A stretch of DNA of 64,000 bases from Candidatus Saccharimonadia bacterium (GTDB taxonomy: Bacteria > Patescibacteriota > Saccharimonadia > Saccharimonadales > JALRHH01), in contig JALRHH010000001.1 of NCBI GenBank assembly GCA_023253175.1, positions 428,020 through 492,019 of the forward strand, written 5' to 3'. The notes under the pieces were generated by a model that saw only the letters and a list, made by a program, of their open reading frames with translations, was not told where the DNA came from and did no database searches. Positions 35,513 to 64,000 of the stretch are shown one piece after another. Within the stretch, counting starts at the first letter, position 1; each line of letters begins with the position of its first letter. Made by a program: the position numbers and the translations under genes.

Positions 35513-37621
35513 CTAGGTGTGCGAGACTTGCAAATGCCCGTGCTGCAAATTGAATTTATAAAGCTTATGTCGTCCATAGTGGCGCATGATAAAGTAAGCA
35601 CCCGCTAAAGTACCGCCCATTCCGATGCCGCCCAACAATATAAGTAATGCCGCAGATGGGTCCTTCACGTCCTTGCCTGCAGCTATTGCCTGGCGTGACA
35701 TATCGGCATATTGTTCAGCAAGCCGATGCGAAGGATAGAGCGCGCGAACTTGTTCAAATTTAGAGAGCGCTTTTGAGTAGTAGTGCTTACTGTACAGATC
35801 GAGTCCCTCTGCCCACAGAGCCTGTACCCTACCGTCTGCATTCAATGTCACATCTTTTTTATTAACTAAATCCTTGAAGTCTTTAATATCACGGACGTAG
35901 CTCTTAGCGGCATCGCCTGATTCGCCGCTATCATAGCGGTATGTTAATAGACCGATTGATTTGCCTTCGCTATTAACCGCAGGGCCACCACTGTTGCCAC
36001 GTGATGCGTCAGCGTCTGTTTGATACAACTTGCCCGCGCCGCCAGCAGCATCACGAACTGAATTGATAGTGCCTTTAGTTACCGTGACATCAGTTGTTGA
36101 ACTATCGATAAGCTCGTTGTCTGCGTCCCCCGGGAAACCAAACAATGTCACTGGCTGGTTTTGACGCGCGACAGTATCCGAAAGTGTGATGTATGGCGCA
36201 TCCTTGACATCTATTTTCAGGAGTGCGACATCACTTGCCGAAAATCCATTTGATGACTTTGCAATGATACTGAGCTTATCTTCTGACTTGTAGTCATAGC
36301 CGATCACGGCCGCTTGCCGAAAATCCATCGTCTGCTCAAAGTTAGTTGTTAGCTTTTTAATATCGGCTTCGCTGCCCAGCGGCAGTGCTGCCCTGCCTGT
36401 TGCAGCCACGGTAATCTCTCGCTGATTACGCAGCCTAAGGGCATTATCCGGTAGATCATATACTTTGCTTACAGCGGAAGCAGTCAGATCACTGCGACTC
36501 ATTACTTCGCCTATTTGCTTCGTGTTTAAGCCCAGGCCAGCTAAATATTTTTGTAGGAGTGGCCTACTTTGAAGCAGTGCGTCAACAAGCATATCTTTTG
36601 CTCCGTACACGACAACATGCCCATTTGTTGCCACATAACCATCACTTGATACGATGAATCCGCTACCTGTTTTTGCGATACATGTATCACTGGAAAGTTC
36701 AGAACCGTTAAATTCCAAGCTACCACAAATAGTGTGGTATATCTTTACGACAGCCGGTGAAACGAGATCAGCAACATAGGCCTCGCCAACAATAGGTTGC
36801 TGCTTTTTTGCAAAAACAGAGAGACCTTTTACGCTCGCGTCAGTACTGAGCTGCATGGATTGGAGTACTGGCTGCATGGTTGTTGGCACAGCTGCCCCGC
36901 CGCTGATACCGCGAATCGTAATGGCAACTGGTTTTGCATTCACCTGCGCAGACCATACGATAGTTCTTGTGGTGCTACCGGCAAATTTTGGAGCAACAAC
37001 ATACACCGTCTTTGTGACGAAGCTACCGCCAAATGATTCAGTAGTGCGTGATTCTTCGGTAATTGTAGCGAGATTAGTTGAAGGCGGCGCGAAATAATCA
37101 GCCGTTATGGCAGTAATATCAGTTTTGCGCTGGTAGTTATTTTTATACGCCGCGAACGCAGCTGCGTCTGTTTCGGCAAGAACTTCGAGTTCTGTAGCAG
37201 CTTCGTTTGCCGGCACGACACTCGGCAGTGGCTTCAGTGTTACGCCTGTGACCGCAGCACTTTTAGCAAGATCGTCAGCGGAAATATTTGGTCCCGACTC
37301 CTGCTGATGAATCGAAGCCGTAAACTGTTCTGGACTATAGACAAACCCAAAACCGTATGAGGAGCGGACCATTGTTGTTTTAATAGCTTGAGTATTGGTT
37401 ACCGCTTGGGAGAAAAGAGATCTTGGATCAATGGTTTGCCGCGTGATAATCGTAGCCACCTCGAGTAGCAATGCGCCAACAAAAAGCACGCTAACGGCAA
37501 GTAGTAGTAAATGACGCCCACGCACCGGCTTTGCGTGGTACGGCAAATGAAGCATATCGCCAACAATGACGCCTATACCATGCGGTGGTGTTTGTTTTGC
37601 TCCTGACGCCGTAAATGGCAT
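35513..37621 (-). CDS. membrane-anchored trypsin-like (S1) serine protease
   Basis: 702 aa. N-terminal TM, catalytic region TNGHVV…GNSGGPAVN, and a C-terminal helical region with a second TM. The start codon is uncertain. Confidence 0.7.
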   Translation of the reverse strand: MPFTASGAKQTPPHGIGVIVGDMLHLPYHAKPVRGRHLLLLAVSVLFVGALLLEVATIITRQTIDPRSLFSQAVTNTQAIKTTMVRSSYGFGFVYSPEQFTASIHQQESGPNISADDLAKSAAVTGVTLKPLPSVVPANEAATELEVLAETDAAAFAAYKNNYQRKTDITAITADYFAPPSTNLATITEESRTTESFGGSFVTKTVYVVAPKFAGSTTRTIVWSAQVNAKPVAITIRGISGGAAVPTTMQPVLQSMQLSTDASVKGLSVFAKKQQPIVGEAYVADLVSPAVVKIYHTICGSLEFNGSELSSDTCIAKTGSGFIVSSDGYVATNGHVVVYGAKDMLVDALLQSRPLLQKYLAGLGLNTKQIGEVMSRSDLTASAVSKVYDLPDNALRLRNQREITVAATGRAALPLGSEADIKKLTTNFEQTMDFRQAAVIGYDYKSEDKLSIIAKSSNGFSASDVALLKIDVKDAPYITLSDTVARQNQPVTLFGFPGDADNELIDSSTTDVTVTKGTINSVRDAAGGAGKLYQTDADASRGNSGGPAVNSEGKSIGLLTYRYDSGESGDAAKSYVRDIKDFKDLVNKKDVTLNADGRVQALWAEGLDLYSKHYYSKALSKFEQVRALYPSHRLAEQYADMSRQAIAAGKDVKDPSAALLILLGGIGMGGTLAGAYFIMRHYGRHKLYKFNLQHGHLQVSHT

Positions 37622-54049: not shown

Positions 54050-55252
54050 TTATTGCTTGAATGCTTCGAGCGTAATAGTTATTTTCTGCTCTTTACCGTC
54101 ACGGACAACGGTTAATTCAACTTTTTCACCCACCGCCTTACGGCTCACGAGCGACACAAGGCTATTCTTTTCGTCGATGCTTGTGCCATCGATCTTGGTA
54201 ATAATATCCTTCTCTTTGAGGCCAGCCTTTTCTGCTGGGCTACCACTTATGATGGCAGAGCCGCTTTGGCTTGGCGCCAAATATGCACCGCGCTTTACAT
54301 TCAAATTATATTGATAGGCATATTCATCATTAAGCGTAACGTAGCGGATACCAAGGTATGGACGCTCTAATTTGCCCTTTTCCAGCACCGTCTTTACAAG
54401 TCCCTGCACATCATTGATTGGGATCGCAAAACCAATGTTTTCCGCACCACCACTTGCAACTGCAGTGTTGATACCAATTACTTCGCCGCTGATATTTACG
54501 AGTGGACCACCAGAGTTACCTTCATTAATTGCAGTATCGGTCTGGAATAAATTCTGGAGTGATTCTGATTCAGATCCATCTGAACTTCCTGCTTCTAGAT
54601 CACGACCATAGCCGGAGATGATGCCAGAGGTAACGGTGTTCTGGAACTGACCAAGTGCATTACCGATTGCCACAGCCTTATCACCAACCTGGACCTTGCT
54701 TGAATCACCCAGCTTAGCAGCGGTCAGCTTCTTGCCCTTGGTATCCTTGATTTTAAGGAATGCGATATCAAGCGTATCGGAGTTAGAAGTCTGCCCCACA
54801 AGCTCTACATCATCAAGCGTCGTGCCATCAGATAAGGTTACTGAGATATCATCAGAAGCGCCGTCTACGACGTGGCGATTCGTAATTACATAGCCGCTCT
54901 CGCTAATGATTACACCAGTGCCAGCACTCTGCTGTTCGTAAGATCGGCTACGACCAAAGAAATCGGTTTGCTGCGCCTGGGTTGTTACATCTATCGATAC
55001 GACGCTCGGACTCACCGTCTTTGCAATATCAGAAATCAGTTGACTCTCATTCAATACCACCTGTTGATCGGCTTTTGAGATAGTCGAATTAACCGCATCT
55101 CGCTCCTTCGCGCCTGAGCCGAGCCAACCACCCAAGAAGCCAAATGATAGACTTGCCACGAGCAAGAATACGACCCCCAAAGATTTAGATTTATCTGCTA
55201 CCGGTATTTTTGGCAATTTCATAGCACCCTCTGTTTTGTTGTCTTTGCTCAT
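54050..55252 (-). CDS. htrA: HtrA/DegP-type serine protease with PDZ domain
   Basis: N-terminal TM, catalytic TNRHVV…D…GNSGGPLVN and a C-terminal PDZ domain (GSPAEKAGLKEKDIITKIDG). Confidence 0.9.
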   Translation of the reverse strand: MSKDNKTEGAMKLPKIPVADKSKSLGVVFLLVASLSFGFLGGWLGSGAKERDAVNSTISKADQQVVLNESQLISDIAKTVSPSVVSIDVTTQAQQTDFFGRSRSYEQQSAGTGVIISESGYVITNRHVVDGASDDISVTLSDGTTLDDVELVGQTSNSDTLDIAFLKIKDTKGKKLTAAKLGDSSKVQVGDKAVAIGNALGQFQNTVTSGIISGYGRDLEAGSSDGSESESLQNLFQTDTAINEGNSGGPLVNISGEVIGINTAVASGGAENIGFAIPINDVQGLVKTVLEKGKLERPYLGIRYVTLNDEYAYQYNLNVKRGAYLAPSQSGSAIISGSPAEKAGLKEKDIITKIDGTSIDEKNSLVSLVSRKAVGEKVELTVVRDGKEQKITITLEAFKQ

Positions 55253-58655: not shown

Positions 58656-59513
58656 CTAGAGGTTGTTAAGCTTTTCGAGTAAGCTACCGAGCTCATCGTC
58701 ACTCTTGAAATGAATCTCAAGACGACCACCCTTTGCAGTACGACGAACACTCACAGGCGTCTTGAGCGTTTTACTGAGACGCTTAGTTTCTGGTGTTTCG
58801 GTAGCCATGCGTTCCTTTACGGCTTCCTCTTTTTTAACGCCTTGCTTATAGGTTGTCGCAAACTGCTCCGCCTGGCGCACCGACCAGCTCTTCTCAATAA
58901 TATTCTGTAGTAGTTCTTCTTGCGCTTCTGGATATGCTTTAAGTGACAAAATCGCCCGGGCGTGTCCTTCACTAATTTTGTTCTCAGCAAGCGCATCGCG
59001 CGCGGATTCAGGAAGCTGCAACAGTCGAACGAGATTGCTGACTGTCGTCTCTGCCTTTGAAAGACGTTCCGCAATTTGCCTATATGTGAGGTTAAACTGC
59101 TGGTGTAGGCGTTCAATCGATATCGCTTGTTCGAGCGGAGATAAATCAACGCGCTGCACGTTTTCAATAAGTGCAATTTCAAGCTCCTCGAGCTGTGCGG
59201 GTTCACGAATAATAACCGGAAGTTCGGTCAGGCCAGCAATTTGCGCTGCGCGCCAACGACGCTCACCGGCTACAAGGCGATAATTGCCATCATCAAGCGG
59301 CACCACGATCAGCGGCTGGAGTACGCCAAACTGCTTCAGTGACCCAGCAAGCTCATTAAGTGCGGCTTGCTCAAAATAGCGTCTTGGCTGGTCTGGATTC
59401 GGCGAAATACGCGTAATGAGTAATTTTTGTATTCGGTCTTTACTGTCGATTAACAGAGATGGATCGAAGTCTGTTGGTATTAATGCATCAAATCCTTTGC
59501 CTAGTCCCGCCAT
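58656..59513 (-). CDS. parB: chromosome partitioning protein ParB (Spo0J)
   Basis: ParB box LVAGERRWRAA, an HTH region, and a position directly downstream of parA. Confidence 0.9.
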   Translation of the reverse strand: MAGLGKGFDALIPTDFDPSLLIDSKDRIQKLLITRISPNPDQPRRYFEQAALNELAGSLKQFGVLQPLIVVPLDDGNYRLVAGERRWRAAQIAGLTELPVIIREPAQLEELEIALIENVQRVDLSPLEQAISIERLHQQFNLTYRQIAERLSKAETTVSNLVRLLQLPESARDALAENKISEGHARAILSLKAYPEAQEELLQNIIEKSWSVRQAEQFATTYKQGVKKEEAVKERMATETPETKRLSKTLKTPVSVRRTAKGGRLEIHFKSDDELGSLLEKLNNL

Positions 59514-60271
59514 TACTTCATCCTTTCTAATATCTCTTTACTTAGCGCCTTATACGCCCTTGCACCCTTAGACCACTTGTCATGCTCTGCGATGGACTTA
59601 CCATGGCTTGGGGCCTCAGCAAGGCGCACGTTACGGGGTACGACTGTCTTAAATAGCTTGTCGCTAAAATGCTTTCCGAGCTCATCATATACCTGCTCCG
59701 ATAGACTCGTGCGACTATCGTACATAGTCACCACCACACCCAAAAGGTCTAATCCTGGGTTCAGCCCTGCCCGCACGCGCTGAACGACACTCAATAATTG
59801 ACTCAATCCCTCCAGCGCGTAATATTCTGCCTGCACGGGAATCAATAAATGGTTCGCTGCAGCTAATGCGTTCACAGTCAGCAGCCCAAGTGACGGTGGA
59901 CAGTCAATCAGCACAATATCATATGAAACATTCGCTAAAATGTTCTTGAGGATTAATTCACGCTGCATCTGACTAACCAACTCTACTTCGGCTGAAGCAA
60001 GACTTGGATTCGCTGGCAGCACAAAAAGCTTATCAATATTCGTTTCCTGGATGGCATCTGATGCCTCCGCACGCCCAAACAGCACGTCGTACATTGTTGC
60101 GCTCAAAGCGTGCTTATCAATACCAAGTCCGCTCGTGGCGTTACCCTGCGGATCGAAGTCCACAATAAGCACCGACTTCCCCGCCTTCGCAAAATAAGCC
60201 CCTAGGTTGATGGTAGATGTCGTCTTACCAACGCCACCCTTTTGGTTTAATACCGCAATAACTTGCCGCAT
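59513..60271 (-). CDS. parA: chromosome partitioning ATPase ParA (Soj)
   Basis: Deviant Walker A NQKGGVGKTT. 252 aa. Confidence 0.95.
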   Translation of the reverse strand: MRQVIAVLNQKGGVGKTTSTINLGAYFAKAGKSVLIVDFDPQGNATSGLGIDKHALSATMYDVLFGRAEASDAIQETNIDKLFVLPANPSLASAEVELVSQMQRELILKNILANVSYDIVLIDCPPSLGLLTVNALAAANHLLIPVQAEYYALEGLSQLLSVVQRVRAGLNPGLDLLGVVVTMYDSRTSLSEQVYDELGKHFSDKLFKTVVPRNVRLAEAPSHGKSIAEHDKWSKGARAYKALSKEILERMK

Positions 60272-60345: not shown

Positions 60346-63300
60346 TTAACGTATTTGTGTACGGATACTACTGTAATTTACGGTAGCTGTATTATTACCT
60401 CCACTACAGTAAACACGCACGAGCACTTCACCCTTAGCCTCGTTCTTGATCTGAAGCCAGTCACCCTTGACCGCACCGGTACGATCTATCGTTGTACTAC
60501 CGCTGTCAGTAAGATCATGCCATATCGGGTTGTCTTCGGTCAGACTGTACTGGAGCTTACAACTTGCACCTTGGCTACCCGCCGCAGTTACGTTAATAAG
60601 GAGACGTGCCTGGTTGGCATTACTGAGGTCAATCCACGTTCGGTTTTCACCAGGGAGCTCATAGTCACCAGATGGCTGCGTCCATGGGCTTCCTCCAGTG
60701 GCAATCGTGTACTCGCTAAACGCAGTCTGTAGACAATCTTGCCACTTATCATTCTGGTAACAGCGGAACTTCTTCATTGCACTGTTGTAGTACTGCGCAC
60801 CGTTAACACCTGCCGGGTCACCATCACTGCTCTTGGTATCAAGCACAAACAGAACTGTCTTGCCGTTATTGCCAGCACCGATCTTCACCTTACCGGTCAA
60901 GGTATCAATATTAAGTGCGTTATCCCCGTTAGCGCCCTTAACCGTAAATGCGTTGCTACTATCGAGCTTCAGCTCGAGTGCACCATTATTAAATACCGTG
61001 AAGACGCCGTTACCATCTTTCTTTAATGTGAGTAAGTTAGTACTACTATCGGCTTCCAGTGTTACTGCTTGTGCACCAATTGTTGTGGCACCAGTTATGC
61101 TACCCACGGCGGTGATGCCACTATTATTGTTATTCAATCCACCTACAATTGATGCACCACCTGAACTCAAGGTTAGTCCAGTAATATTCTGAAGTGCACC
61201 CGATGCAGTAAGCCGCAGCGTGCCACCCGTGCTGATTGTGTTCAGGTTAGCGTTACCCTGACTATTTAGATACTTAGATAATTCACTAACACCCCTGAGC
61301 GTGTAGATACTGAGACCTTCGTAGTTCACATGCTTGTATCCGTATTCATCAGAGTAAACGAGTCCCGGCAGCACAGTTTCCAGTTGCTGCGCAAGTACAC
61401 CAGTCTGCCGCTTGGTATCACATGATGTATTAGTTGAGCTAAAGTAGTTATTAGTACAATCAAAATCAAAGTTAACAGTCTGGATATCCTTAAGGCTATC
61501 AAGTACAGAACCCTCAAGGCCAACAATGTTAGTCTTAAGCCTCTGGTCAGAGAGACCTACTCCCGTACAAGCACTAACACTCGTGATAATACCACCCCTT
61601 ACAACAGCAGTGTTCAGATACTGACCACCCGAACAAGCAATATCGATACCGGTGTAAGTAGTTGTTGAACGAACAATTCGGTAACTACTTGCGTTGTTCG
61701 TAATAGTCACATTACCGCCCGCATTAAGCACGCCCGATGCTGTGACCGCACCGTTAAGTGAAACATTACCCGTACCGGTGCTAAACGTACCCGTACCACT
61801 CATTGCAAAGTTACCACTCGTCTGTGCGTAGCCTGTTATGCCAGAGAGGCTGCCGGCATTGATGATCAGGCCGTTAATGGTATTGGTGGCGGTGGCGCCG
61901 GTAATTGCACCAGATAATGCAAGTGTCGTTACGCCGCTAATCGCACCCGCGCTTGATACATCAAATGCAGTTGAATTAATTGTCAGCGCATTGCTACCTC
62001 CACCGATGGTTATTGCACCGGTACCCGTAACCGAGAAGGCACCACTCGTTTGGCTGAAGCCAGTAATACCACTAAGACTTCCGGCGTTAATAATCAGGCC
62101 GTTGATGGTATTGGTGGCCGTTGCCGCTGTTATAGCACCCGAGGCAGAGATAGTCGTCACGCCGCTCAAGGCGCCGGCGTTGATACTGAGACCGTTAATG
62201 GTGTTTGATGTTGCGGCCGTGATTGAGCCGGAGGCAGAAATTGAGGTAACTCCAGAAAGTGCACCGGCGTTAATGATCAAACCGTTGATTGTATTTCCAC
62301 TTGTAGCACCTGTGATTGCACCGGATAGTGCAATCGTCGTCACGCCGCTAATCGCACCCGCACTCGTCAGGTCAAAGTTAGTTGAATCAATCGTCAGCGC
62401 ATTGCTACCACCGCCAAGCGTGATATTGCCCGTACCGGTTACAGAGAAGGCACCGCTCGTCTGTGCGTAACCCGTGATGCCAGACAGACTACCACTGTTG
62501 ATGATCAGGCCATTAATCGTGTTTGTAGTCGTTGCTGCAGTTATGGCGCCCGACGCAGATATCGTTGTAGCCCCGCTGATAGCACCCGCGTTGATATTTA
62601 ATCCGTTTATTGTGCCGGTTGTAGCTGCCGTAATTGAGCCAGAGGCGGAAATACTACTGATACCGCTGAGTGCACCACTGTTGATAATAAGTCCGTTGAT
62701 GGTATTTCCAGTTGTAGCCGCACTTACTGCACCCGTAACGCCCAATGATGTACCGGCAATAGAACCAGCACCGGTGATATTACCGCCGCCTAGCGCAAGA
62801 TTACCGCTCGTTAACGTCAGTCCAGCAACGCCACCGATAGATCCCGCGTTTGTGATGCCGCCGCTATTGAGGTTAATGCCGCCAGAACTGAACGTGACAC
62901 CCGTTACACCAGATAGTGCACCCGCGTTGATGCTCAGGCCATTGATGGTGTTTGATGTTGCGGCAGTAATTGAACCCGTGGCGGAAATAGTTGTTACGCC
63001 AGCCAATGCGCCGGTGCCGGTAATACCGCCACCATTATTCGAGATGCCGCCGCTTGATATGATCAGGCCACCACCAGCAGTAATGGTCTTTGTAGCAGCC
63101 GTTTGCAGGTTACCTGCTATATCGACAGTAGTGCCGCTTGCTCCAAGCGAAATATTTGTAGCCGCACCACCGATATTGAGCACTGATACGTTCTCGTTTG
63201 CCACATTGAACGTTCCAAGTGTTGAGGTAATGCCATTTTCGTTGTAATACGTTGTACCGTTACCCGTTACCACACCGGCTATGAAGTAGCCTCGGCCAAA

Positions 63301-64000
63301 TCGGTTTGTCAGAGTAGAAGTTGTATTGCCACCGCCAATTTCAGGAATATAGTATTCCGTAACTGCAGCCCCGGCAGACCAGCTAAGGTTCGGTGTGATG
63401 GACAGTGCAGATGCCGTCTTGGATGTAATCTTCGCATAGGTGCCGTTAACGAGTACATAGTTACCAACGTCAAAGTTAGCAGTGTTGCCACTGCCAACAT
63501 TTATCGTACCCGGACTTAGACCACTGGCACTCGTTGCAGTTGTGGAACCGTCAAGCTGCGTAAAGCCACTCGTTACTCCGCCATTTGCGTCGACATTAAA
63601 CTTGCCGCTCGCAGCCTGCAATGTGGTCACACCAGATAACGCGCCAGCGTTTGTGATGCCACCGCTATTGAGATTAATGCCACCGCTTGTGAAGGTCAGT
63701 CCAGTAAGCCCACTGACATTTCCTGCGTTAATGTTCAAACCGTTGATCGTGTTTGATGTTGCGGCTGTGATGCCACCGCTCATGTTCAGTGTCGTCACAC
63801 CAGATAGCGCACCACTGTTTATGATCAAGCCGTTAATAGTATTTGTGCTCGTTGCCCCCGTAATTGCTCCAGTAACCGTAAGCGTACCTGTAGATACAGA
63901 AGTAAAGCTCGGCGTGCTACTAAGGTTGACTGACAACGTTCCTCCAAGCGCTACACTACTACTACCACTGAGATTCGTGCCAAGGCTGACATTGAAGCTA
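60346..64000 (-). CDS. giant repeat-rich surface/fibre protein with internal peptidase S74 (intramolecular chaperone) domain; N-terminus outside the window
   Basis: The frame stays open to position 64000, giving more than 1217 aa. There are tens of ~29-aa G/S/T/N/I repeats (…ITAATSNTINGLxINAGALSGVTTISASG…). The S74 signature GLSDQRLKTNI…GVLAQQLETVLPGLV…VNYEGL lies at about 61264-61563 and is followed by 305 further residues. Confidence 0.8.
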   Translation of the reverse strand, partial: SFNVSLGTNLSGSSSVALGGTLSVNLSSTPSFTSVSTGTLTVTGAITGATSTNTINGLIINSGALSGVTTLNMSGGITAATSNTINGLNINAGNVSGLTGLTFTSGGINLNSGGITNAGALSGVTTLQAASGKFNVDANGGVTSGFTQLDGSTTATSASGLSPGTINVGSGNTANFDVGNYVLVNGTYAKITSKTASALSITPNLSWSAGAAVTEYYIPEIGGGNTTSTLTNRFGRGYFIAGVVTGNGTTYYNENGITSTLGTFNVANENVSVLNIGGAATNISLGASGTTVDIAGNLQTAATKTITAGGGLIISSGGISNNGGGITGTGALAGVTTISATGSITAATSNTINGLSINAGALSGVTGVTFSSGGINLNSGGITNAGSIGGVAGLTLTSGNLALGGGNITGAGSIAGTSLGVTGAVSAATTGNTINGLIINSGALSGISSISASGSITAATTGTINGLNINAGAISGATTISASGAITAATTTNTINGLIINSGSLSGITGYAQTSGAFSVTGTGNITLGGGSNALTIDSTNFDLTSAGAISGVTTIALSGAITGATSGNTINGLIINAGALSGVTSISASGSITAATSNTINGLSINAGALSGVTTISASGAITAATATNTINGLIINAGSLSGITGFSQTSGAFSVTGTGAITIGGGSNALTINSTAFDVSSAGAISGVTTLALSGAITGATATNTINGLIINAGSLSGITGYAQTSGNFAMSGTGTFSTGTGNVSLNGAVTASGVLNAGGNVTITNNASSYRIVRSTTTYTGIDIACSGGQYLNTAVVRGGIITSVSACTGVGLSDQRLKTNIVGLEGSVLDSLKDIQTVNFDFDCTNNYFSSTNTSCDTKRQTGVLAQQLETVLPGLVYSDEYGYKHVNYEGLSIYTLRGVSELSKYLNSQGNANLNTISTGGTLRLTASGALQNITGLTLSSGGASIVGGLNNNNSGITAVGSITGATTIGAQAVTLEADSSTNLLTLKKDGNGVFTVFNNGALELKLDSSNAFTVKGANGDNALNIDTLTGKVKIGAGNNGKTVLFVLDTKSSDGDPAGVNGAQYYNSAMKKFRCYQNDKWQDCLQTAFSEYTIATGGSPWTQPSGDYELPGENRTWIDLSNANQARLLINVTAAGSQGASCKLQYSLTEDNPIWHDLTDSGSTTIDRTGAVKGDWLQIKNEAKGEVLVRVYCSGGNNTATVNYSSIRTQIR
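61630..62770. repeat. about 2.7 tandem copies of a 411-bp (137-aa) super-repeat inside the giant gene
   Basis: The 20-mer ACGCCGCTAATCGCACCCGC occurs at 61931-61950 and again at 62342-62361, giving a period of 411 nt. Each unit contains three ~29-aa sub-repeats plus a TSGAFSVTGTG…GGGSNALTI linker. Confidence 0.8.

Follow-up and report, generated by a model that had tools for sequence, protein, structure and literature searches.

An internal peptidase S74 domain in a giant chromosomal fibre protein of a Candidatus Saccharimonadia bacterium and its relatives

The 64,000-nucleotide stretch of DNA analysed here (hereafter the window), taken from contig JALRHH010000001.1 of a Candidatus Saccharimonadia bacterium, ends in the 3' part of a minus-strand gene for a giant fibre protein in which a peptidase S74 domain lies inside the chain and is followed by a conserved cassette of stalk, neck and head modules. 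The domain retains the Ser/Lys dyad of characterised S74 proteins, the same architecture recurs across the lineage with the dyad intact, and the context of the gene is chromosomal and vertically inherited. We consider the protein to be best read as the kind of object represented by the mosaic adhesive trimer (MAT) fibres of Bdellovibrio. With some reservation, we favour a model in which an exported, N-terminally held trimeric fibre would cut itself between Leu1366 and Ser1367, giving a proximal fibre and a distal S74-stalk-neck-head trimer.

The S74 domain and its place in the protein

A preliminary annotation made from the letters of the window without database searches (the sequence-only reading) had described an open reading frame of more than 1,217 amino acids running to the window edge, and had recommended extending the contig to reach the N-terminus. 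The frame indeed holds 1,217 codons within the window, and the full gene has 1,767, the first 550 of which lie beyond the edge. We took the complete gene (L001:4623-9926) from a 644-kb ENA contig, L001, that encodes the neighbouring ParA and shows 0 mismatches to the window across the whole 14,488-nt overlap. The extended chain begins with a basic N-terminus, a hydrophobic segment (residues 26-51) and a conserved ARVYA|ASSS motif, continues with an N-terminal domain of ~110 residues and a long repetitive shaft (~1,200 aa), and ends with the S74 domain (1367-1462), stalk (1463-1595), neck (1596-1642) and head (1643-1767). The parts that fall within the window are listed below, with residues numbered for the full-length protein unless the fragment encoded by the window is named.

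60346..64000, minus strand: 3' part of the fibre gene (1,217 codons plus stop), with the stop codon at 60346-60348 and the frame open to the window edge
61660..63999, minus strand: Gly/Ser/Thr/Asn/Ile-rich fibre shaft, residues 551-1330, recognised by TINGL units and autocorrelation
63160..63582, minus strand: non-repeat insertion in the shaft, residues ~690-830, recognised from the sequence and a hairpin-like GTTYYNENG motif
61552..61659, minus strand: Cys-bracketed segment (Cys1339...Cys1361) directly upstream of the predicted cut, recognised by a conserved Cys pair
61264..61551 (approximate), minus strand: S74 domain including its predicted C-terminal helix, from Pfam and a profile comparison with solved S74 domains
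61549..61551, minus strand: predicted nucleophile Ser codon (residue 817 of the fragment, 1367 of the full-length protein), aligned with MYRF S587
61534..61536, minus strand: predicted general-base Lys codon (residue 822 of the fragment, 1372 of the full-length protein), from the Ser+5 spacing
60865..61263, minus strand: stalk, from alignment and matches to hidden Markov models of the modules
60724..60864, minus strand: neck with conserved Cys1630-Cys1639, from alignment
60349..60723, minus strand: jelly-roll beta-sandwich head with conserved Cys1697 and Cys1748, from an AlphaFold2 (AF2) model

The S74 signature had been placed at about 61264-61563 with its Ser codon at 61549-61551, and both the domain and the exact position of the Ser are borne out. 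Pfam recognises family PF13884 (Peptidase_S74) at fragment residues 817-881 (E=9.8e-10), scoring 39 bits where the curated cut-off is 22, and the match spans profile positions 1-57 of 58. The full-length protein gives an equal result, with S74 as its lone Pfam match, and an NCBIfam scan of the protein returned no match. The domain is internal as described, and a direct count finds exactly 305 residues after it.

A profile of the S74 domain was built from 13 relatives and searched against the PDB, where the SDQRLK motif (fragment residues 817-822) falls in register with its SDxRxK counterpart in four solved domains, so that the dyad, on whose alignment the sequence-only reading had let its proposal depend, is correctly aligned. 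These are a phage tail fibre (8jov, E=6.7e-7, SDERLK), the S16 long tail fibre (6f45, E=1.4e-5, SDRRIK), MYRF (7dc3, E=6e-5, ADLRAK, crystallised as S587A) and the GA-1 neck appendage chaperone (3gud, E=1e-3, SDERHK). The chain of 3gud begins exactly at the motif Ser, since it is the released GA-1 chaperone, and Ser1367 aligns to this first residue. None of the 13 relatives departs from the Ser, Asp, Arg, Leu or Lys of the motif. The profile was required for these matches, as a single-sequence phmmer search of the 448-aa C-terminus against the PDB yielded nothing relevant.

The Ser+5 spacing of Ser1367 and Lys1372 equals that of endoNF S911/K916 and MYRF S587/K592, two dyads that are equivalent to each other (PMC8326128). 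In MYRF the dyad severs the bond joining P586 to S587, and does so only once the protein has trimerised (PMC8326128). Because of this precedent, the scissile bond of the fibre is predicted by analogy to be the one joining Leu1366 to Ser1367. Within the domain, Cys1398 and Cys1410 delimit an internal loop, and a helix is predicted at the C-terminal end; in the profile comparison the alignments with 8jov and 6f45 extend through LSIYTLRGVSELSKYL, where AF2 places a helix at a predicted local distance difference test score (pLDDT) of only ~50.

The segment directly upstream (61552-61659) is replaced in some orthologues by a C-x15-C hairpin, 'ILKWNGTAWAC', and after the predicted cleavage it would form the new C-terminal tip of the proximal fibre. 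A disulfide bridging the cleavage site was considered and is not favoured, because the Cys pairs look local and the upstream pair brackets the C-x15-C hairpin in some orthologues. The full protein contains 8 Cys, all within the last 430 residues and arranged as four closely spaced pairs, which is consistent with an extracellular protein.

Internal S74 domains and their downstream modules among relatives

The S74 profile was searched against 1.84 billion cluster representatives, which gave 40,522 matches at E<=1e-3. Our census covers the best 150 of these, and because they are close relatives of this S74 subtype they cannot represent the other ~40,000 matches. More than 100 residues follow the S74 domain in 117 of the 150, 301-450 residues follow it in 55, and 20 or fewer follow it in only 10, while 53 carry two to four S74 copies. 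The complete S74-stalk-neck-head cassette is present in ~30 cluster representatives. Both Ser and Lys are kept in all 163 of the 163 alignable S74 copies that have more than 100 residues downstream, including copies located 3,897 residues from the C-terminus. As a viral control, all 26 of the 26 S74 hits on IMG/VR contigs end 1-24 residues after the model, in agreement with the literature consulted, which describes a C-terminal domain (PMC10769870), and with the earlier statement that S74 forms the extreme C-terminus of phage proteins. Where the sequence-only reading erred was in treating the internal position as a peculiarity of this open reading frame, given that it is common in the large set of relatives covered by the census. 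An internal S74 domain is typical of this lineage.

Orthologues of the fibre gene are found in seven other Saccharibacteria species, in each case directly upstream of parA, parB, a signal peptidase gene and lytR, with ParA 64-86% identical. Their open frames range from 1,392 to 2,523 codons owing to a variable shaft, and the Ser is always 383-412 residues from the C-terminus. A positional orthologue of 2,194 aa beside the same four genes (P0020; L087:6001-12585, GCA_041600755.1) carries three S74 copies with the motifs SDSGLK, SDSNLK and SDIRLK, of which the first two do not have the Arg of SDxRxK and all three have an intact Ser and Lys. Orthologues thus differ in how many S74 modules they have. 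The chromosomal protein P0050 (L088:5001-21422, GCA_964541515.1) is longer still at 5,473 aa, with four S74 domains ~1,100 residues apart that all read SDxRLK, Pfam matches to PTL_trimer and Bact_surface_Ig-like, and an acidic low-complexity C-terminus. From its sequence, P0050 looks like a self-cleaving polyprotein of fibre modules. In one further genome (L013 and L042; CAWIAU010000001.1, 279-314 kb), two neighbouring giant genes with open frames of 2,862 and 3,865 codons each have an internal S74, 263 and 369 residues from the C-terminus.

We searched the literature for S74 together with Saccharibacteria, Patescibacteria or giant genes and found no paper that links them, and the adhesins named in a transposon-sequencing study of Southlakia differ from the S74 fibre family. 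The internal-S74 fibre architecture is widespread in the lineage and was not found described in the literature searched.

The three modules after the S74 domain differ in how they are conserved. The first ~65 residues of the stalk are present after every S74 copy in the multi-S74 relatives P0020, P0022, P0023 and P0003, and they therefore look like an adaptor from S74 to fibre. The possibility that the stalk is the duplicated start of a second fibre is not claimed here, as the internal similarity is weak and of low complexity. The neck, with the motif LFVLDxK..GDPxG.NGAQYYNS...KFRCYQN..WQDC, is the best-conserved module (55-96% identity across orthologues), and its motif recurs in other Patescibacteria fibre proteins. 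The neck motif, in the form ..YYNS...KFRCY....W.DC, was also observed in metagenome-assembled genomes (MAGs) labelled as Aenigmatarchaeota (DPANN), WOR-3, Acidobacteria and Gammaproteobacteria (L054, L055, L068 and others), a spread that could reflect wide distribution, horizontal transfer or mis-binning.

The Cys-containing, beta-rich C-terminal domain anticipated from the letters was submitted to the structure prediction and Foldseek comparison that had been advised. AF2 models the head as a jelly-roll beta-sandwich with a pLDDT of ~90, a type of fold that also serves at the tips of fibres. Foldseek matches in the PDB are generic only (CBM6, TNF-like lectins, lambda gpJ, birnavirus VP2 and the EphA4 ligand-binding domain), and those in BFVD are phage collagen/C1q-type fibre proteins. 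On the strength of its modelled fold class, the head may be a ligand-binding, lectin-like element, a suggestion that goes no further than the fold class because the Foldseek relatives are generic. It is the most divergent module of the cassette at 39-71% identity and is not hypervariable; the cassette as a whole is conserved (39-96% identity by module), contrary to the C-terminal hypervariability that had been raised as a point to check. The heads in three further contigs (L002-L004) are identical to that in the window and so are uninformative on strain variability. A word-indexed homologue search with neck and head alone gave two matches only, and the alignment was not deepened by it. Two other proteins, P0012 and P0013, have a closely related S74 followed by a different C-terminal domain (...GYATVKAGQSSVHIGF...VTADGFDIVLSQP...), which suggests exchange of the tip downstream of S74; P0013 also has an N-terminal CBM_4_9 domain.

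N-terminus, shaft and genomic neighbourhood

The hydrophobic segment at residues 26-51 is the sole one in the 1,767-residue protein, with no other anchor. From its sequence we infer that it is a signal peptide or signal anchor, with predicted Sec export. The ~110-aa domain that follows is 52-82% identical among orthologues and presumably holds the fibre on the cell.

The shaft had been described as tens of ~29-aa repeats. Its repetitive, fibre-like nature is evident, but the count and period are not as described: there are 10 clear 'TINGL' units spaced at 30, 31 or 76 residues, and the autocorrelation peaks at lags of 30, 31, 61 and 76. These units partly form super-repeats of 137 aa (30+31+76), and the remaining fibre is degenerate. 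The composition of the frame is dominated by Gly, Thr, Ser, Ala, Asn, Ile and Leu, which together account for ~78% of residues. Tandem Repeats Finder did not detect the repeats in the DNA, where they are too diverged. The shaft insertion at 63160-63582, of ~140 residues and containing ...GTINVGSGNTANFDVGNYVLVNGTYAKITSK...GTTYYNENG..., looks from its sequence like a small globular domain decorating the fibre.

Downstream of the fibre gene, the partitioning genes named in the sequence-only reading are in place:

59513-60271: parA, adjoining the fibre gene downstream
58656-59513: parB, following parA

They are followed by genes for signal peptidase I, a LytR-family protein, an HtrA-like protease, RF1, PrmC and ribosomal protein S2. 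The remainder of the window is likewise of housekeeping character (SecA, tRNA synthetases, CTP synthase and G6PD), which confirms that phage genes do not flank the fibre gene. Upstream, beyond the window (L001:1-4242), are genes for a 2,058-aa Kelch-repeat protein and for hypothetical proteins of 292 and 257 aa, all syntenic with the fibre gene in several Saccharibacteria species, and together with the fibre these might constitute a functional cluster of surface proteins. The GC content of the fibre gene and that of its third codon positions (GC3) match those of neighbouring genes. All of the nearest relatives at the genome level are Candidatus Saccharibacteria MAGs, in keeping with the putative episymbiont that had been proposed.

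Some further observations concern the window itself. ARAGORN predicts no tRNA gene in positions 1-64000 and no Rfam family reaches its gathering threshold there, despite dense housekeeping genes. Two trypsin-like serine proteases are encoded on the minus strand, one of 702 aa with a long N-terminal extension (35513-37621) and one of 400 aa that is HtrA-like and has a PDZ domain (54050-55252), the latter in the conserved block downstream of parAB.

Proposed processing and what it would mean

Three groups of characterised proteins bear on how the fibre may work. In the MAT proteins of Bdellovibrio, a signal peptide precedes a conserved, beta-rich N-terminal domain of ~130 aa and a trimeric shaft, and the chain ends with a terminal S74 (13 proteins) or with a tip of beta-sandwich, TNF-like or C-type-lectin type (8 proteins); Bd3182 is of the S74 type, and Bd2439 and Bd2734 have TNF-like tips (Caulton et al. 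2024, PMC10769870). Like them, the saccharibacterial protein is a phage-like, putative surface fibre with a length of at least ~1,000 aa, encoded on the chromosome of a bacterium that lives by attachment to other bacteria. It appears to follow their order, with a predicted N-terminal export signal, a conserved N-terminal domain that may correspond to the beta-rich one of MAT proteins, and a repetitive shaft, and it also has an S74 domain with SDxxxK and a beta-sandwich or TNF-like type of tip. A weak sequence match also links residues 288-339 to Bd3182 (8OJN/8ONB/8ONC, E=6.4e-4); it concerns the beta-helix and a single capping loop of the V-G-x-G-x-x-x-P-x-x-x-L type, where VGIGDTTPAALF is aligned to VGVGTTAPTSAL of Bd3182. 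Whereas a MAT protein has either S74 or a tip at its end, the saccharibacterial fibre has both in series, with S74 internal and the cassette after it. Its orthologues iterate S74 up to three times, and its host is a monoderm-like Patescibacterium. Bd3182 cleaves itself at the S74 Ser to give separate fibre and chaperone species, and a C-terminal mCherry passenger leaves together with the chaperone (PMC10769870), which provides an experimental precedent for an S74 domain with a passenger downstream.

The phage chaperones (endoNF 3GW6, T5 pb1 4UW8, GA-1 gp12 3GUD, S16 gp37 6F45 and 8JOV) belong to the same Pfam family and have the aligned SDxRxK Ser/Lys dyad, a beta-rich core followed by a C-terminal helix (predicted in the saccharibacterial protein), and a location where a beta-helical fibre ends, a fibre that would be trimeric in the saccharibacterial case as well. 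In phages the chain ends with this domain, which is shed once folding is complete, whereas the saccharibacterial one is followed by 305 conserved residues, contains the extra disulfide loop Cys1398-Cys1410, and is encoded by a gene outside any phage. The cleaved S74 piece leaves the mature fibre in endoNF, T5 and Bd3182, and S74 density is absent from cryo-electron microscopy (cryo-EM) maps of phage fibres.

The third group, MYRF and Dictyostelium MrfA (7DC3), shares an internal ICA domain with the fibre, and that of MYRF is the lone internal ICA described in the literature searched. The MYRF domain trimerises via its C-terminal helix and cuts just before the Ser, and the cut separates two functional parts of one precursor, to which we liken the fibre by homology (E=6e-5). 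MYRF is a membrane-tethered transcription factor whose N-terminal part is released and whose C-terminal part is anchored by a transmembrane helix. The fibre, unlike MYRF, shows no Ndt80-like DNA-binding domain in the Pfam scan and no transmembrane helix downstream, and its passenger is a fibre with a jelly-roll head. The polarity is reversed relative to MYRF because the sole hydrophobic segment of the fibre is N-terminal.

With these precedents in mind, we infer trimerisation, cleavage, the fate of the two pieces and binding to a host, and arrange them as follows. After export, the S74 domain would trimerise through its C-terminal helix and set the folding register of the upstream shaft, whereupon the Ser1367/Lys1372 dyad would cut the predicted bond. 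One precursor would in this way yield two trimers, namely a cell-proximal fibre of 1,366 residues with a disulfide-bracketed tip, and a 401-residue piece composed of S74, stalk, neck and jelly-roll head. The head would be a lectin-like ligand binder directed at the surface of the host cell. We think it most likely that the distal piece would be free or loosely held rather than permanently attached, because S74 chaperones behave in this manner in phages and in Bd3182. Several points weigh against this model and should be kept in view. A conserved stalk-head of ~300 residues might be expected to remain as the tip of the fibre rather than be released, the head is devoid of a close structural relative (best Foldseek E=6e-4, TM-score <=0.54), and the AF2 monomer of S74 plus stalk has a pLDDT below 50, too low for the geometry of the junction to be read from it.

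The first of these points leads to a distinct possibility, although one we consider doubtful, in which the protein is one continuous fibre of ~1,767 residues. The S74 domain would then be a node for trimerisation and registration, either uncut or cut with the pieces still associated, and the head would be the distal adhesive tip. Such an arrangement would suit the conservation and constant size of stalk, neck and head, the distal TNF-like or beta-sandwich tips of MAT fibres, and the ~65 stalk residues behind every S74 copy, which suggest an adaptor continuing the three-fold axis. If the pieces were cut and held, they might come apart under mechanical load at a junction serving as a breakaway point, for which the autoproteolytic SEA and GAIN domains offer an analogy. 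However, the retention of Ser and Lys in every one of the 163 alignable internal copies is hard to explain without catalysis, the S74 piece separates in every characterised case (endoNF, T5 and Bd3182, with no S74 density in cryo-EM maps), and the Cys pairs appear to be local and not to bridge the scissile bond. As a more far-reaching version of the cleavage model, we offer only tentatively, and think it rather improbable, that S74 domains in Saccharibacteria and other Patescibacteria are programmed cut-sites of polyprotein-like giants, with one to four per chain releasing several trimeric modules and, in the present protein, a free soluble head trimer.

Two other explanations were considered, and the genomic evidence speaks to both. 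S74 domains and fibre-like composition are typical of phage receptor-binding proteins, and the structural matches in BFVD are phage fibres, and one could in principle suspect nothing more than a common tail-fibre gene, left by a prophage or the relic of a phage, that happens to lie beside parAB. The sequence-only reading had itself noted that a prophage beyond the 64-kb edge would undo its proposal, but what lies there is the Kelch-repeat gene and the two hypothetical genes. Neither these three nor the fibre protein match PHROGs, the flanks are housekeeping, and the gene order is the same in the seven other species. GC and GC3 resemble those of the neighbours, and among 50,697 phage records the S74 part alone matches, at <=38% identity, with none covering >=80% of the query; IMG/VR matches to the cassette number three and are weak and partial. 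We therefore reject the prophage explanation as highly improbable. It is also the case that repetitive fibre genes are prone to assembly errors, and the orthologue in L005/L008 is broken by a scaffold gap, so the internal position might be thought an artefact of misassembly or of a lost stop codon that fused an S74-terminated fibre gene to the gene downstream. Against this, the last 547 codons (S74 plus cassette) are identical in contigs of three further samples (L002-L004), and the seven orthologues and ~30 cluster representatives have an uninterrupted S74-stalk-neck-head order. Given such identity and recurrence, misassembly and accidental fusion are excluded for practical purposes.

If the cut-site proposal holds, the freed head trimer would act on the host at a distance or serve as a detachable tether, and the system would parallel MYRF processing, but outside a bacterial cell and with the opposite polarity. 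In the literature searched, S74 figures as a C-terminal aid to folding that is thrown away afterwards, MYRF being the single internal exception, and yet, judged from the best 150 matches, internal and even iterated S74 domains with intact dyads prevail in a large set of bacterial giants that lack annotation. This points to a self-cleaving polyprotein route by which trimeric modules of the cell surface could be built or released. Such a route is conceptually less surprising in view of MYRF and the MAT fibres; the intact dyads in internal and repeated S74 domains, together with a possible role in host contact, add to its interest. Saccharibacteria live attached to bacteria, and their host-recognition molecules are largely unknown beyond type IV pili and a few lectin-like proteins (PMC10633639, PMC12206443). 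The fibre gene, which is conserved, vertically inherited, predicted to encode an exported protein and equipped with a putative lectin-like head, is a concrete candidate for this recognition function.

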